From NCBI GenBank assembly GCA_000092065.1, contig CP000584.1: a DNA stretch of 64,000 nt. The stretch is one strand, 5' to 3'. Within the stretch, counting starts at the first letter, position 1; each line of letters opens with the position of its first letter. The notes under the pieces were generated by a model that saw only the letters and a list, made by a program, of their open reading frames with translations, did not search any database and was not told where the DNA came from. This DNA is from Ostreococcus lucimarinus (lineage: Eukaryota). The position numbers and the translations under genes are program-made. This document shows, in pieces, positions 18,950-24,212 of the stretch.

Positions 18950-21307
18950 CTAAGGAATCGATGACAACGCTTCGGCGAAGAGACGTTGAAACGCGACGAA
19001 ATTCGTCCCGCGGCCGTCGCACTTTGCCGTAAACGTCGCCGCACGCGCCGTGGCGTCGATGAGCGCTTCCACTAGAAAGATTTCGCGGTTTCCATTATCG
19101 ATGGCGTAGAAATAAAACTTCATCGCATTCGACGGTCCACCGCTCGCCATGGTGGCGACGCCTCGAGGTGCGAGATGTTGCGTAACTTGCGCCGCGCTCG
19201 CGAGCGCGTTCGATCGCAGCGTCGCTTGCAATCCCGTCGCCACCACTGCGGCGGACGTCCACTTCATTTGAAAGCTCGTCGAATCGAGCGCTGGTAGTGG
19301 ATCGAGCGCGAATACTGCCGGCGGCGCATCGACAGATTGGGGCGCCGCCGGTACGTCTACGTCGAGGAGCGAGAGCAAATCCACCGCCGAACCGCCGCTG
19401 GCGGACGCCTTTTCCTCGTCGGTGTCCCCCAGGTCAATCATATCCATCGAGTGGTCGATCAATGAGCCACCACCGCCCGCGGCGATGTCGTCCATTTCGT
19501 CGGCATCCACGCGCGCGCGACGAGTGAACGCGTCCGGGTCCACAAATTTCACTTCTGGACGTTCGTACAGCACGGACAATGTGTTGAATTCGTTGAACAC
19601 CTTGTCGAACGTCTCATCCTCTATCACGGTTTCTTTGAAGGTGTAAATCGGCGATGACTTATCACGCGAGTTCACTACTTTCTCCGCCGCGCGCACATCG
19701 CGCTCTAACAGGCGATAGTACAAACTGGCCAAGTCGCGCACTTCCTGGTTTGTGTCGCACGAGCCCGCAAGCAAGGCGGCGCCGAGCATCGCTTGCATCT
19801 CCGGTGCGCGCTTAAAGAAGAGCTTCATCGCGCTCGACAGCAGTTGTGATCGCACATTGGCGCTCGGCTCATCGCCAAAGTTTGTGAGTACAGGCTCGAT
19901 AAAGTACGGCGCGAGCGGAATATCTTCGCCGTACTCGCCATACATCCACACCAAGGCGCCGCGCGCGCGAGACGGGACGACGTCAATCAGATCGATGTTC
20001 TTGATCGCCTGAACGCACTGTACCGCGTACTTTGGACGCTTGCGCAAGACATTTACCACCGAAATGATCGTTTCCGCTGTCACGTGCTCGATGTCTAAAT
20101 CAAAGTATTGCAACAAGCGGTCGACGATGCCTTCCAAATCATCCGCCGCCGAGAGTGCGATTTCCCCCACCGCGCGCACGGCGGCGCGCGCAATACCGAT
20201 ATCCGCGTCGGTGACGTATTCAGTGAGTTCGGTGACGATGTCGTATGTGTTTTGCGCATCCGCGACGGCTACGAGCATCGAAAGCTTCAAACTCTTCACC
20301 GCCCCTGAATCGCTCCCGCGGAAATAAAAGTTCTTGTAATCAGTCGAGAACAAGATGGGGGCGCGTTTCACCAACAACCGCACGTGAGCCCACACCGCGT
20401 AGCTCGTTTCCACTGTTCCGCCGTTCGCTAGCGTGAACAACGGCGCCTTGATGCGCTCCAGCACCTGTTGATGCACGTCTGGCATCTCGAGCGTAATGTT
20501 CAAAAAAACCTTCACCGTGCCCAAAACGATGGCGGAATTCGGCGCGCTCAGCCTCGACTCGAGCGCGTTCATGATGTCAAAAGTCTCATCTTTGTTCTGA
20601 ATCTCATACGCCCCCACTAACTCCAAAATCAACGCCTGGTTCCACTCGCTAAACGATTTAATTCTATTAATCAAAGCGTACACGATGGGCTTCGTCGCCA
20701 ACGACTCGATCCCGTCAATCTCCCTCAACACGATCAAACAATTCCCCACCACTCCCGCGTCGGTATCGTTCACCAGCATTTCTCGCAGCGCATCCAGTAT
20801 CCCAGTCTCCCGCACCGCGCTTGGATTCAAATCGTACACCTTGAGCGCCCCCATCGCCGCCACCGCTCGCGGATACCCTCCGGCGTCTCTCAACCCCGCC
20901 ATCACGCACGCCGTCGCGTACTCGATCAAATCATCCACCCCTAATCCCGCGATGCTTCGTATCGCCAATCCCCGTATCGTTTCATTCGCGCTCGCGCAAT
21001 CTTTTTGCAGCGCGTTCACCGCCAGCGTCGCCAGTTCCCGTTCGCGCCGCGCGTGGTGGCAAATGTACGCGTAAATCAACTTCTTACACGCCACGTCCAC
21101 GGTGTGCGCGTTCAGCACGACGTCTGGGAACAGTTTAGACACGTCGACCGCGATCGTGAGCAGGTTCAGGACGCGTCGGAGGACGTGTCTGCGCTGCGCG
21201 TTCGCGCGGTCGTCGTCCGATTGTTTGGAGCTCAACAGTTTCAACGCTTTCGACAGCTCCGCGACGTCATCCGCGCGTTTCGACGGCGATTTCGCGGTCG
21301 ACGGCAT
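18950..21307 (-). CDS. AP-complex beta-adaptin large subunit, most likely AP-4 beta judged by its roughly 785-aa length.
   Basis: ATG at 21307 (cat at 21305-21307). The Adaptin_N region VSKLFPDVVLNAHTVDVACKKLIYAYICHHARRERELATLAVNALQKDC...NETIRGLAIRSIAGL aligns to beta-adaptin [64 protein letters not shown]. A C-terminal appendage/platform-like domain is present. Minus-strand TGTAA is at 18937-18941. Confidence 0.75.
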   Translation of the reverse strand: MPSTAKSPSKRADDVAELSKALKLLSSKQSDDDRANAQRRHVLRRVLNLLTIAVDVSKLFPDVVLNAHTVDVACKKLIYAYICHHARRERELATLAVNALQKDCASANETIRGLAIRSIAGLGVDDLIEYATACVMAGLRDAGGYPRAVAAMGALKVYDLNPSAVRETGILDALREMLVNDTDAGVVGNCLIVLREIDGIESLATKPIVYALINRIKSFSEWNQALILELVGAYEIQNKDETFDIMNALESRLSAPNSAIVLGTVKVFLNITLEMPDVHQQVLERIKAPLFTLANGGTVETSYAVWAHVRLLVKRAPILFSTDYKNFYFRGSDSGAVKSLKLSMLVAVADAQNTYDIVTELTEYVTDADIGIARAAVRAVGEIALSAADDLEGIVDRLLQYFDLDIEHVTAETIISVVNVLRKRPKYAVQCVQAIKNIDLIDVVPSRARGALVWMYGEYGEDIPLAPYFIEPVLTNFGDEPSANVRSQLLSSAMKLFFKRAPEMQAMLGAALLAGSCDTNQEVRDLASLYYRLLERDVRAAEKVVNSRDKSSPIYTFKETVIEDETFDKVFNEFNTLSVLYERPEVKFVDPDAFTRRARVDADEMDDIAAGGGGSLIDHSMDMIDLGDTDEEKASASGGSAVDLLSLLDVDVPAAPQSVDAPPAVFALDPLPALDSTSFQMKWTSAAVVATGLQATLRSNALASAAQVTQHLAPRGVATMASGGPSNAMKFYFYAIDNGNREIFLVEALIDATARAATFTAKCDGRGTNFVAFQRLFAEALSSIP

Positions 21308-21479
21308 CGCGCGCGCGCGATTCTACCGCTCCGAAGCGATCGGGAGCGCGCGCGACGCGTCGCGTCGGTGACGCGCGACGATTTGTGCCGATGCGATTAC
21401 TCGCGACGCGCGACCAATCGCCGCAGAGCGAAGCGCGTCGACGTCGCGACGCGTCGCGCGCGCGCGGCGGCGTCGCGTC

Positions 21480-23123
21480 ATGTCGTTCGCGTCGATCGCG
21501 CGACGCGCGGGCGCGAGAGTCGCGCGCGCGACGAGAATCTCGAGCGTCGTCGAGGCTGGGACGAGTTGGCGATTCAACGCGCTGTCGACGGCGCGCGACG
21601 ACGACGACGCGCGCGGGCCGACGCCGACGTCGCCGCATCGACACCAAAAACTCGTGAACGTGCACGACGACGGCGGCGTCGGGCTGGGGGTGGATCTGGA
21701 CTACGACGACCGCGGCGCGGCGGGCGCGGGGAGCGCGGCGGGCCGGAGCGCGCAGTACGAGGAATACGTCTCGAGCCTCACCCCGCGACAAGCGAACGTG
21801 GTGATCGCGGCCGGAGACTTAGAGAAGGCGTCGGGAAAATATCGAGTAGAGGTGACGACGGGGCGAAATCGAGGCGCGGGGACGAGCGGGCGGGTGGAAT
21901 TGACGTTCGTCGGCGGCGACGGGTTGACGTATCCGGTGGCGCTGGAGTACGAAAGCGGGATAAATCCGACGTTTTCGAGGGCGTCGAGCCTGCCGTTTCG
22001 AATCGCGAGCAGCGCGAGATTGGGAGATTTGAAACGGACGCGCGTGCGATTGGTGCCTGAGCTCACGTCGGTTGGGCGGGGGTGGTTTTTGGAGGACATC
22101 AAGGTGACGTGCGAGAGCACGGGAGACGAATGGTTCTTTCCGTGTCATAGATGGTTCGGGCAGAGCGATGCGGGGGATGGGAAATCGGGGCCGTTTACGC
22201 AAGATCTCGAGGCGAAGTCACCGGATGAGATTCGCACGCCGTTGTGGATGGAAGGGGACATTCGTAAAGAACGCGGGGAATTTGAGTGCGTGGCGAGCGG
22301 CGCGGCGGTACCGCATCCGGAAAAGATGAAGCGCGAGGGCATGCGAGCGCTCGTGCGACGAACGCACGGACACGGAGGAGAGGACGCGTATTTCACCGCG
22401 CGTGGACCAGATAACACTATGGGCATGGGGATCGCCGACGGTGTGTACTTGTGGCGTTGGCAAGGTATCGACGCGGGCGAGTACAGTCGATTACTCATGA
22501 ACCACGCCGCCGAGGCGTTGCGGTCGGGGAAAGAGAATCGACCGACCGCCATGCTCACGCACGCGTACGAGCAAGTGACCGCGGCGGGCATGAAGGGAAG
22601 TACCACGGCGTGCGTGGTCGTCATCGATAGCGAACACGGTTTGCTATACGGCTCGAACGTCGGTGATAGCGGATTCATGCTCATTCGCGGCGAACGGGGG
22701 GCGCGATTTTGCGCGCATCGCAGCCCGCCGCAAGAGCACGATTTCGGCTGTCCATTTCAGCTCGGACATCACGAAGCGAGCGATAAGGCGAGCGATGCGA
22801 TGCGCACAAAGTTATATCTCGAACATGGCGACATCGTCGTCCTCGGTTCGGACGGGTTGTGGGATAACCTGAGCGAAGTCGAAGTGCTGGAGAGCGTCGA
22901 AGCGTCCGTCGCCGAGGGCGCGTCCATCGACGAGAGACTCATGGACGTCGCGGCGAGGAATTTGCTCTCGAAAGCGTACGAGGTGAGCATGGATAAATCG
23001 CGAACGACACCGTATTCTCTCGCCGCGACGGAGCATTTCGACATGGTGTATAGCGGCGGAAAGAAGGACGACATCAGCGTCGTCGTCTGCCACGCTCGAA
23101 TCGGGAACGGTGCCGATCGCTAG
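21480..23123 (+). CDS. PLAT/LH2 domain fused to a PTC7-type PP2C (PPM) protein phosphatase.
   Basis: ATG at 21480 is followed by an Ala/Arg/Ser-rich presequence. The PLAT segment is YRVEVTTGRNRGAGTSGRVELTFVGGDGLTYPVALEY...FRIASSARLGDLKRTRVRLVPELTSVGRGWFLEDIKVT. PPM motifs are GEDAYF, GIADGVYLW, STACVVVID, GSNVGDSGF and the LGSDGLWDN metal-binding motif. Confidence 0.75.
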   Translation: MSFASIARRAGARVARATRISSVVEAGTSWRFNALSTARDDDDARGPTPTSPHRHQKLVNVHDDGGVGLGVDLDYDDRGAAGAGSAAGRSAQYEEYVSSLTPRQANVVIAAGDLEKASGKYRVEVTTGRNRGAGTSGRVELTFVGGDGLTYPVALEYESGINPTFSRASSLPFRIASSARLGDLKRTRVRLVPELTSVGRGWFLEDIKVTCESTGDEWFFPCHRWFGQSDAGDGKSGPFTQDLEAKSPDEIRTPLWMEGDIRKERGEFECVASGAAVPHPEKMKREGMRALVRRTHGHGGEDAYFTARGPDNTMGMGIADGVYLWRWQGIDAGEYSRLLMNHAAEALRSGKENRPTAMLTHAYEQVTAAGMKGSTTACVVVIDSEHGLLYGSNVGDSGFMLIRGERGARFCAHRSPPQEHDFGCPFQLGHHEASDKASDAMRTKLYLEHGDIVVLGSDGLWDNLSEVEVLESVEASVAEGASIDERLMDVAARNLLSKAYEVSMDKSRTTPYSLAATEHFDMVYSGGKKDDISVVVCHARIGNGADR

Positions 23124-23165: not shown

Positions 23166-24212
23166 TTATACATCGTTCGAGACGACGTCAATCACGGTTA
23201 GATTCGTTTCCGCGCGCCAAACCTTACCCGGGGCCACGACGACCGGTCTCGAAACCGCCGCGCTCTCGACGCAACAAAAGTTTTTATAACACTCCTTCAT
23301 GTTCGTGTGCGGATTCCAAATCACCGTATCCGTCCACCCCGCGGTGTTTTCCACGCTCACCGCCGCCCCACTCCCGACGTGCAACAACGTCTCCGGCTCA
23401 GTATCAAGATACACGCGATCAACGAGATCTAACCCGAAGAACACGTCTCTCGAATCTTGCACTTTTTTCGGCGGATCGTTCGCGTCGACGTTCTTGTCCA
23501 GATACGTCTTTCCCGACAAACCGCGCGCGAACACCCCCGCGTTGGCACAATCCGTCACCTCGATGTACGTGTGAATAGCCGCGGTGAAATCAATCGCTTT
23601 TCCACTCGTTTCTTCGTTCGTATTCTTCACGCACAGCTCCATCTTCAGCTTCTCCCGTCTTAAAGTCACCTCGTACGTCGCCTCAAACGCTTCGTCCCAC
23701 ATCGCTCGCGTGTACTCGTTCGGCTTCAATCGCATCATCACCGCAGGTTCCGGATCATCCGGATTCACGTCCGCAGACGTTCCGATGACCTCCCAATCCA
23801 CGTTTCGCGCGAATCCGTGCTGTTGCATCGCGCCCGGGCCGAATTGCGGAAAGCACAACGGCGCGCCGCCGCCGATGGGCTTCGTCTTGTCGAACGCCGC
23901 GTCCGGGCGCACGTACAACACCTCATCCCCGCTCGGCTGCGTCCACGACGTCACCGTGGCGCCGAATAGGTACACGCGCGACGTGGATCCGTTTTTATGC
24001 GTCAGCAGCGCCGTCGGAAGGTCACCGCGACCGTTTTCGAACGTCACCGACCCCGGGATGGCAAACTTTTCATTCAACGCATCGATCGTTGACTTCGCGC
24101 TCGGCCCGATGGCGGACGCGCGGATCGCGCGAATCGACGGTGCGCGGTGCTTTTTATGCCTCGGATGCGTCGGCGCGGCGCGCGGCGACGCGCGAGCGCC
24201 GTTGGCGCGCAT
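23166..24212 (-). CDS. Glucose-6-phosphate 1-epimerase (aldose-1-epimerase-like, YeaD family), with an N-terminal presequence.
   Basis: ATG at 24212 (cat at 24210-24212). Family blocks are VYLFGATVTSWTQPSGDEVLYVRPDA, GGAPLCFPQFGPG..QHGFARNVDWEV and WNPH. Length 348 aa. TGTAA follows immediately after the stop, at 23161-23165 on the minus strand. Confidence 0.8.
   Translation of the reverse strand: MRANGARASPRAAPTHPRHKKHRAPSIRAIRASAIGPSAKSTIDALNEKFAIPGSVTFENGRGDLPTALLTHKNGSTSRVYLFGATVTSWTQPSGDEVLYVRPDAAFDKTKPIGGGAPLCFPQFGPGAMQQHGFARNVDWEVIGTSADVNPDDPEPAVMMRLKPNEYTRAMWDEAFEATYEVTLRREKLKMELCVKNTNEETSGKAIDFTAAIHTYIEVTDCANAGVFARGLSGKTYLDKNVDANDPPKKVQDSRDVFFGLDLVDRVYLDTEPETLLHVGSGAAVSVENTAGWTDTVIWNPHTNMKECYKNFCCVESAAVSRPVVVAPGKVWRAETNLTVIDVVSNDV

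Follow-up and report, generated by a model that had tools for sequence, protein, structure and literature searches.

Does Ostreococcus lucimarinus encode a PLAT/LH2 domain and a PTC7-type PP2C phosphatase in one gene, and what would such a protein do? We analyzed a 64,000-nucleotide stretch of contig CP000584.1 (the window), in which positions 21480..23123 of the plus strand form one uninterrupted open reading frame (ORF) of 547 amino acids (aa) with an ATG start, according to a program-made ORF list. Comparison with homologs assigns this ORF to a single gene for a two-domain protein, the ortholog of O. tauri Q01BE9 and Chlamydomonas Cre01.g036200. We consider it fairly probable that the product is an organelle-targeted PP2C7 phosphatase, most likely mitochondrial, which its PLAT domain would dock to a membrane or to a membrane-associated partner.

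One gene encodes both domains

M1 is the first possible methionine, as an in-frame stop lies 36 codons 5' of the ATG with no ATG between. The protein is 100% identical to database protein P0001. For this identical protein, public database gene calls already carry both Pfam domains, and the gene calls of the Joint Genome Institute (JGI) give the label 'protein phosphatase PTC7'. The parts of the gene have the following positions in the window.

21480..23123, +: PLAT-PP2C7 phosphatase coding sequence, complete and intronless, 547 aa plus stop (ORF list, upstream in-frame stop, 100% identity to P0001).
21480..21596, +: aa 1-39, basic, Ser/Ala/Arg-rich, acid-poor, presequence-like N-terminus (composition, chlorophyte orthologs, predicted local distance difference test (pLDDT) <45).
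21597..21833, +: aa 40-118, acidic disordered spacer (pLDDT 29-42, motif conservation in Mamiellales).
21834..22211, +: aa 119-244, PLAT/LH2 beta-sandwich (Pfam PF01477, PDB profile matches, AlphaFold2 (AF2) strands, Foldseek).
22212..22280, +: aa 245-267, short, poorly conserved interdomain linker of low confidence, containing M257 (pLDDT <50 at aa 253-262).
22281..23102, +: aa 268-541, PPM/PP2C catalytic domain of PP2C7 (PTC7/PBCP) type (PF00481/PF07228, 6AE9, pLDDT >90).
22377..22394, +: aa 300-305, GEDAYF, PPM motif 1 with the invariant metal-binding D302 (alignment A1).
22428..22445, +: aa 317-322, GIADGV, PPM motif 2 with invariant D320-G321 (alignment A1).
22842..22868, +: aa 455-463, LGSDGLWDN, PPM motif 8 with invariant D458/G459/D462/N463 (alignment A1).
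23055..23078, +: aa 526-533, GGKKDDIS, PPM motif 11 with invariant D530-D531 (alignment A1).

The peptides quoted in the initial annotation were all located in the translation: the PLAT segment YRVEVTTGRNRGAGTSGRVELTFVG is aa 121-145 and GWFLEDIKVT is aa 201-210, and the three phosphatase motifs (GEDAYF, GIADGV and LGSDGLWDN) lie in the catalytic domain. Its central proposal, a PLAT domain fused to a PTC7-type PP2C in one ORF, is confirmed by Pfam domains above cutoff on both sides, by modelled folds, and by an architecture that is conserved also in transcript-derived proteins.

The reference protein of O. lucimarinus CCE9901 (XP_001417158.1 / ABO95451.1 / A4RVK8, 291 aa) is 100% identical to aa 257-547. 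It starts at the internal M257 (nt 22248-22250) and is without the N-terminal extension and the whole PLAT domain. This PP2C-only model speaks for the alternative that PLAT and PP2C are separate genes or products and that the long ORF is a fortuitous read-through. We regard this alternative as highly improbable. The ORF list shows no stop or frameshift between the domains. A protein database search returned 116 homologs at E<=1e-5, far beyond chance. Among them is the O. tauri ortholog Q01BE9 (575 aa, 76% identity), whose annotation is full-length. Other Ostreococcus lineages, with 81-73% overall identity, retain the protein sequence of aa 1-256, and the PLAT part is conserved throughout Chlorophyta (homolog search, alignment A1). 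A start at M257 would leave only 11 residues ahead of the first PP2C strand and would delete a domain under clear purifying selection. In addition, the transcriptome-assembled proteins P0050, P0051 and P0052 have both domains on one mRNA, and the motif FPCxxWFGxSDxGxxxGPxERxL, which spans the C-terminal end of PLAT (aa 220-238), is among the best conserved stretches of alignment A1. Because of the continuous frame, the conservation of aa 1-256, the two-domain transcripts and the motif at the PLAT C-terminal end, we assign PLAT and PP2C to one gene. The two-gene reading, which the initial annotation had named as a possible refutation, is effectively refuted. The reference protein XP_001417158.1 / A4RVK8 should accordingly go from 291 to 547 aa, and analyses built on the 291-aa model miss the PLAT domain and the targeting region.

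The N-terminal half contains a PLAT domain

Pfam PF01477 (PLAT) matched aa 121-230 with an E value of 5.4e-13 and 50.1 bits (gathering cutoff 23); of the 117 profile positions, 1-108 are covered. When the PDB was searched by sequence profile, the PLAT part matched 5-lipoxygenase (5-LOX, 1.6e-18) and polycystin-1 (5e-14). The AF2 model of PLAT alone (aa 113-264) has about 7-8 strands, with pLDDT 87 and a predicted template modelling score (pTM) of 0.82. Its best Foldseek match was the PLAT domain of coral 8R-LOX (E 2.8e-10, root-mean-square deviation (rmsd) 1.3 Å over 130 columns), and further matches were 5-LOX, 15-LOX-2, pancreatic lipases and Rab6IP1. The domain thus models as a beta-sandwich that superposes on lipoxygenase PLAT domains, at residues ~119-244 and not at residues 150-300, the figures given in the initial annotation. 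A failure of this part to model as a PLAT beta-sandwich was the other refutation named there, and it did not occur.

Residues invariant in the family include T127, R131, A133, G134, W202 and W225. The motifs TGxxRGAGT, GWFLExIxV and FPCxxW of the algal PLAT resemble LOXHD1- and polycystin-type repeats, and the homolog search matched fish LOXHD1b at 1.2e-35. A PLAT-only profile search of a large protein database returned only 7 short fragments and was uninformative on other architectures. For residues 75-135 of Q01BE9, Kerk et al. 2015 mention that a further PLAT-like stretch (cd01757) may exist, and assign no probability to it (PMC4524716). We did not retain it as a domain, as the equivalent residues here (aa ~50-110) have no Pfam match and a pLDDT <45.

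The catalytic domain belongs to the PP2C7 class

The C-terminal half matched Pfam PF00481 (PP2C) with 34.4 bits (cutoff 20.3) and PF07228 (SpoIIE) with 33 bits (cutoff 25), so that all three profiles named for checking in the initial annotation lie above their curated cutoffs. NCBIfam gave a weak match to bacterial Stp1 only, as expected for a eukaryotic PPM. The full-length AF2 model, built with the 30-sequence alignment A1, has a mean pLDDT of 76.9 and a pTM of 0.68. Residues 1-107 are disordered (pLDDT <50), the strands of aa 119-244 score ~70-94 and aa 268-541 mostly >90.

The top Foldseek match in the PDB was rice PBCP (6AE9; E 6e-21, target template modelling score 0.89, rmsd 2.1 Å, 28% identity), with ABI1/HAB1-type and bacterial PP2Cs next at E ~1e-10. 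There were 226 PDB matches at E<=1e-3, and the 50 matches listed are all PP2Cs. The PDB profile search likewise placed PBCP 6AE9 (E 5e-48) ahead of the next PP2C, PPM1H (1.3e-8). Because PBCP 6AE9 scores far above other PP2Cs, because the named matches are PTC7, PP2C55 and PP2C80, and because the O. tauri ortholog is in the PP2C7 set of Kerk et al., the catalytic domain is of the PP2C7 class (PTC7/PPTC7/PBCP) and not a canonical PP2C.

The catalytic residues are kept. D302, D320-G321, D458-G459, D462-N463 and D530-D531 are invariant in the 30 orthologs of A1, and the same acidic residues of PPM motifs 1/2/8/11 are invariant in 16 sequences that include non-algal members (alignment A4). From this pattern, our analyses predict a catalytically intact, active Mn2+/Mg2+-dependent phosphatase.

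Within the class, the nearest PLAT-less relatives are land-plant PP2C55/PP2C80, with ~37-40% identity and E ~1e-56 to 1e-60. These proteins share 'Assemblage B' of Kerk et al. 2015 with the PLAT-bearing sequences (PMC4524716). In the trees of the same study, Q01BE9 lies outside the PBCP clade and another O. tauri gene, Q01BZ3, lies inside it (PMC4524716). Our own neighbour-joining (NJ) tree of catalytic domains included no PBCP sequences. We rejected assignment as a PBCP ortholog on the basis of the Kerk trees and the top PLAT-less matches; the evidence points to a gene that is not orthologous to PBCP.

The fusion is widespread and already catalogued

The initial annotation called the combination unusual. 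This is correct relative to PP2Cs in general, but it does not hold for this subfamily, which is old, conserved and tabulated by Kerk et al. 2015. That study (PLoS One, PMC4524716) defined the 'PP2C7' class and found PLAT among its few accessory domains. Its Table I gives OtQ01BE9 with PLAT at 148-263 and PP2Cc at 329-566, annotated 'lipid/membrane protein interaction'; Ot32153 with the same architecture (PLAT 56-171, PP2Cc 237-439); Cr1g036200 (PLAT 70-194, PP2Cc 238-505); and Monosiga brevicollis MbA9UVZ4, a PLAT-PP2C-LIM protein (PMC4524716). In the Kerk trees the PLAT-bearing PP2C7s form one clade with posterior 0.99-1.0 (PMC4524716). Because of its truncated public model, the O. lucimarinus copy did not enter that set as a PLAT-bearing protein. 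The PLAT-PP2C7 architecture has therefore been known since it was catalogued in 2015, and the novelty of the gene is low because it is an ortholog of this widely conserved architecture. What we add is the corrected O. lucimarinus gene model, wider taxonomic evidence, and an N-terminal extension that is absent from the aligned non-algal fusions. A literature search with the identifiers Cre01.g036200, Q01BE9, A4RVK8 and A9UVZ4 found no functional study of any PLAT-PP2C7 member.

The ortholog search suggested in the initial annotation recovered the same fusion across Chlorophyta and in several other eukaryotic lineages. Named matches with PLAT and PP2C came from Ostreococcus, Coccomyxa, Chlorella, Auxenochlorella, Haematococcus, Volvox, Pleodorina, Monoraphidium, Bryopsis, Pyramimonas, Chlamydomonas sp. 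UWO241 and Pedinophyceae. An exhaustive hidden Markov model search of 1.84 billion representatives gave 16,839 matches at E<=1e-3; giant proteins with many PLAT repeats ranked at the top by summed score, and several dozen clusters at 50% identity aligned to both domains in a single stretch. By cluster look-ups and Pfam, Mesostigma viride, Paramoeba aestuarina (Amoebozoa) and Rigifila ramosa (CRuMs) have this architecture too, and both Pfam domains were present in all ten of the divergent fusion representatives (10/10). Two sequence features persist from algae to Amoebozoa and CRuMs (A1, A4): FPCxxW(F/L)GxSDxGxxxGP at the C-terminal end of PLAT and a VPHPxK segment where the PP2C domain begins. 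By these shared sequence features, the O. lucimarinus protein belongs to the PLAT-PP2C7 fusion subfamily. Homolog searches recovered no PLAT-PP2C7 fusion from land plants.

Several records need separate mention. In Batrachochytrium salamandrivorans P0084 (BASA81_008038), a family-specific profile detected PLAT at residues 1-136 (E 1.4e-7); the precomputed Pfam annotation of this record holds SpoIIE only. The fusion may thus occur in a chytrid, or the record could be contaminated. The Mesostigma viride protein P0215 (Mv21845-RA.1, 2557 aa) carries PLAT-PP2C at 49-487 and a guanylate/adenylate cyclase domain at 1611-1783, and represents either merged gene models or a larger signalling protein with several domains. 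P0160 (MDA9080262.1), labelled as a PLAT/LH2 protein of a Candidatus Dependentiae bacterium, shares at least 90% identity with an ortholog of Mamiellales type and falls in the cluster of P0010; it almost certainly stems from a eukaryotic contig mis-binned into a bacterial metagenome-assembled genome.

Our NJ tree of catalytic domains places the 21 PLAT-less PP2C7s that were sampled in one group, separate from all PLAT-bearing sequences, with 46% support (support values are from our own NJ and bootstrap). This weakly supported split suggests a single ancient origin of the fusion. Three proteins of 507-527 aa (P0074, P0075 and P0094), with no detectable PLAT in their ~100-115-residue N-termini, fall on the PLAT-bearing side of the tree. 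Their catalytic domains score like the fusion family, and they could be secondary PLAT losses or carry a divergent N-terminal module. A broader scenario can be offered only tentatively. The fusion, seen in Archaeplastida, Amoebozoa, CRuMs and Opisthokonta, would have arisen once very early in eukaryotes; it would be a distinct signalling enzyme whose PLAT responds to the state of the membrane (lipid composition, Ca2+ or tension, a role that has been proposed for PLAT in 5-LOX) and couples it to dephosphorylation; green algae would then have gained the presequence and relocated the protein to an organelle, and land plants, animals and most fungi would have lost the fusion.

The N-terminal extension and its predicted localization

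The 118 residues ahead of PLAT fall into two parts of different charge. Residues 1-39 hold 7 K/R and 1 D/E, and the disordered residues 40-118 hold 14 D/E. Nearly all Met-starting chlorophyte orthologs open with a basic, Ser/Ala-rich, acid-poor stretch. An organellar presequence in aa 1-39, as noted in the initial annotation, is plausible from this composition.

Two spacer motifs are conserved in Ostreococcus, VHDDGGVGLGVDLDYDDRG (aa 61-79, nt 21660-21716) and YEEYVSSLTPR (aa 93-103, nt 21756-21788). They are short acidic-hydrophobic linear motifs with counterparts in other Mamiellales-like orthologs. The Ostreococcus consensus of the first is VHDDGGVGLGVxLDYDDRG. A second, ~50% identical group of Mamiellales-like orthologs (P0010, P0021, P0025, P0030) has GFADTxDDDMG(F/Y)VEVD(F/L) and a second copy, DGDVDWxSIDFD.

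For Cre01.g036200, the consensus of ~10 predictors is mitochondrial (Kerk et al. 2015, PMC4524716), and PB-Chlamy gives 'Mitochondrial' at 0.96 and 'Not_Chloroplast' (Chloroplast Protein Atlas). The PP2C55 (At4g16580) group is also predominantly predicted to be mitochondrial (Kerk et al. 2015, PMC4524716). In green algae the protein is likely to be targeted to an organelle, for which the mitochondrion is the better candidate; both statements are predictions.

A proposed membrane-docked organellar phosphatase and its alternatives

In our proposal, the presequence would direct the protein, like Ptc7/PPTC7, into an organelle, most likely the mitochondrion. The PLAT domain would then hold the phosphatase at the membrane surface or on a membrane-associated partner, and this docking would limit a generic PPM core to membrane-proximal phosphoproteins as its substrates. 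The term 'lipid-targeted' in the initial annotation derives from the roles of PLAT elsewhere: PLAT docks proteins to membranes or partners in lipoxygenases, polycystin-1, lipases and alpha-toxin. Ca2+-dependent membrane binding through loop Asp/Asn/Glu and exposed Trp/Phe residues (5-LOX, alpha-toxin) is a property of some PLAT members only.

Several observations weigh against this proposal. In the PDB profile alignment, the invariant R131-G132 aligns with the position of W13/F14 of 5-LOX, and the variable loop PTFSRA aligns with the N43/D44/E46 loop; these 5-LOX residues are the membrane-insertion and Ca2+-ligand loop positions of the wild-type enzyme. Only the core tryptophan is kept among the compared 5-LOX positions (W225, aligned to W102). 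The Ca2+-ligand and membrane-loop residues of 5-LOX are thus, in this alignment, not conserved, and the domain probably binds in a different mode. The ligand itself may be a lipid or a protein. Furthermore, the aligned non-algal fusions are without the long N-terminal extension, with a Met at most ~25-30 residues before PLAT and in several cases immediately before it (A4), so organelle targeting is not intrinsic to the PLAT-PP2C7 subfamily. In the Chloroplast Protein Atlas, the experimental localization of the Chlamydomonas ortholog is given as 'not_known'. For O. tauri Q01BE9, the predictors disagree and their consensus is the chloroplast (Kerk et al. 2015, PMC4524716), and our literature search found no experimental localization, activity or lipid-binding data for any member.

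That chloroplast consensus, which Kerk et al. 2015 give as 'Ch' for both Q01BE9 and Volvox D8U5M4 (PMC4524716), together with rice PBCP 6AE9 as the closest solved structure, would fit a chloroplast or thylakoid phosphatase acting like PBCP, the photosystem II core phosphatase, with PLAT docking to thylakoid lipids. We think this unlikely. The PLAT-bearing algal sequences are outside the At2g30170/PBCP clade of the Kerk trees, where O. tauri is represented by Q01BZ3 (PMC4524716), and the nearest PLAT-less relatives are PP2C55/80, not PBCP. The same fusion occurs in the non-photosynthetic Paramoeba, Rigifila and Monosiga and in the chytrid record, the Volvox D8U5M4 model is a fragment, and Cre01.g036200 is predicted to be mitochondrial and not chloroplastic. 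The role of PLAT itself could also be a different one. Instead of a lipid anchor, it could be a protein-protein or autoregulatory module that gates the active site or binds one specific partner, much as the lipase PLAT binds colipase. The motif at the C-terminal end of PLAT is strongly conserved, and the pTM reaches 0.68 despite 107 disordered residues; together these suggest a fixed PLAT-PP2C unit. The lack of conservation of the lipoxygenase Ca2+ and membrane-loop residues also speaks for such a module, and Kerk et al. place PLAT among 'putative protein interaction domains' and annotate it with 'sequestered substrate access' (PMC4524716). Against it, many PLAT domains bind membranes. We give this module reading a small chance; it concerns the role of PLAT only and is compatible with the rest of our proposal. 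An organellar PP2C7 phosphatase docked through PLAT is still the reading we prefer.

Genomic context

On either side of the gene lie ORFs for beta-adaptin, an aldose-1-epimerase-like protein, an M16 insulinase, an NSUN2-like methyltransferase and ABCF. With a guanine-cytosine (GC) content of ~60%, the region looks like part of the compact nuclear genome of a picoeukaryote. The gene neighbourhood within the window gave no functional clue to the PLAT-PP2C7 gene. The divergent beta-adaptin gene (18950-21307, minus strand) is separated from the PLAT-PP2C7 ATG by 172 bp (21308-21479), and the two genes probably share a bidirectional promoter, a spacing that fits a very compact genome. On the other side, the convergent aldose-1-epimerase-like gene (23166-24212, minus strand) ends 42 bp past the stop.

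Long overlapping ORFs are present on both strands of 21005-22202, for example 21005-22060 on the plus strand (351 aa, Arg-rich) and 21267-21791 on the minus strand (174 aa). They overlap the PLAT-PP2C7 gene, and with low-complexity Arg/Ala-rich translations they look like products of the ~60% GC content and not like genes.

Significance and comparison with known systems

In yeast and mammals, phosphatases of the PTC7 type control metabolism in mitochondria as well as mitophagy; in plants, the related PBCP controls photosystem II phosphorylation. A conserved PLAT-bearing subfamily offers a simple handle on how PTC7-type phosphatases are positioned at organellar membranes. With a compact intronless gene in Ostreococcus and a genetically tractable Chlamydomonas, localization and knockout work should be feasible. 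No long-standing question depends on this gene, and its architecture is already documented.

The closest counterparts are O. tauri Q01BE9/Ot32153, Cre01.g036200, Volvox D8U5M4 and Monosiga A9UVZ4, in which PLAT precedes PP2C7 as in O. lucimarinus; the Monosiga protein differs in its extra C-terminal LIM domain. Land-plant PP2C55/PP2C80 (the At4g16580 / At5g66720 group) have the nearest PLAT-less catalytic domains, with long N-terminal regions but no PLAT. PBCP (At2g30170; rice 6AE9) is the best profile and structural match for the catalytic domain and has the catalytic motifs in common with it, but it is without PLAT and belongs to another PP2C7 clade, Assemblage A of Kerk et al. (PMC4524716). 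Yeast Ptc7 and mammalian PPTC7 are of the same catalytic class, and the Chlamydomonas ortholog resembles them in its N-terminal presequence and predicted mitochondrial targeting; they have no PLAT, and specific orthology is weakly supported in our NJ tree. Ptc7/PPTC7 are mitochondrial PP2C7 phosphatases that act in coenzyme Q biosynthesis and in BNIP3/NIX control.

On the PLAT side, the domains of lipoxygenases, polycystin-1, LOXHD1, pancreatic lipase, Rab6IP1 and plant PLAT1 have the same fold and belong to the same sequence family. In lipoxygenases, polycystins and lipases, PLAT is joined to a lipid-metabolizing enzyme or a channel, whereas here a single PLAT is joined to a phosphatase. Other PP2Cs are brought to membranes by other means: PHLPP by a pleckstrin homology (PH) domain, POLTERGEIST/PLL1 by acylation and phosphatidylinositol 4-phosphate (PI4P), PPM1L by a transmembrane helix and PPM1H by an amphipathic helix. 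To our knowledge, none of these uses PLAT, and they represent different PPM subfamilies with unrelated modules. The principle is the same in all of them, a generic PPM core made specific by a membrane tether.

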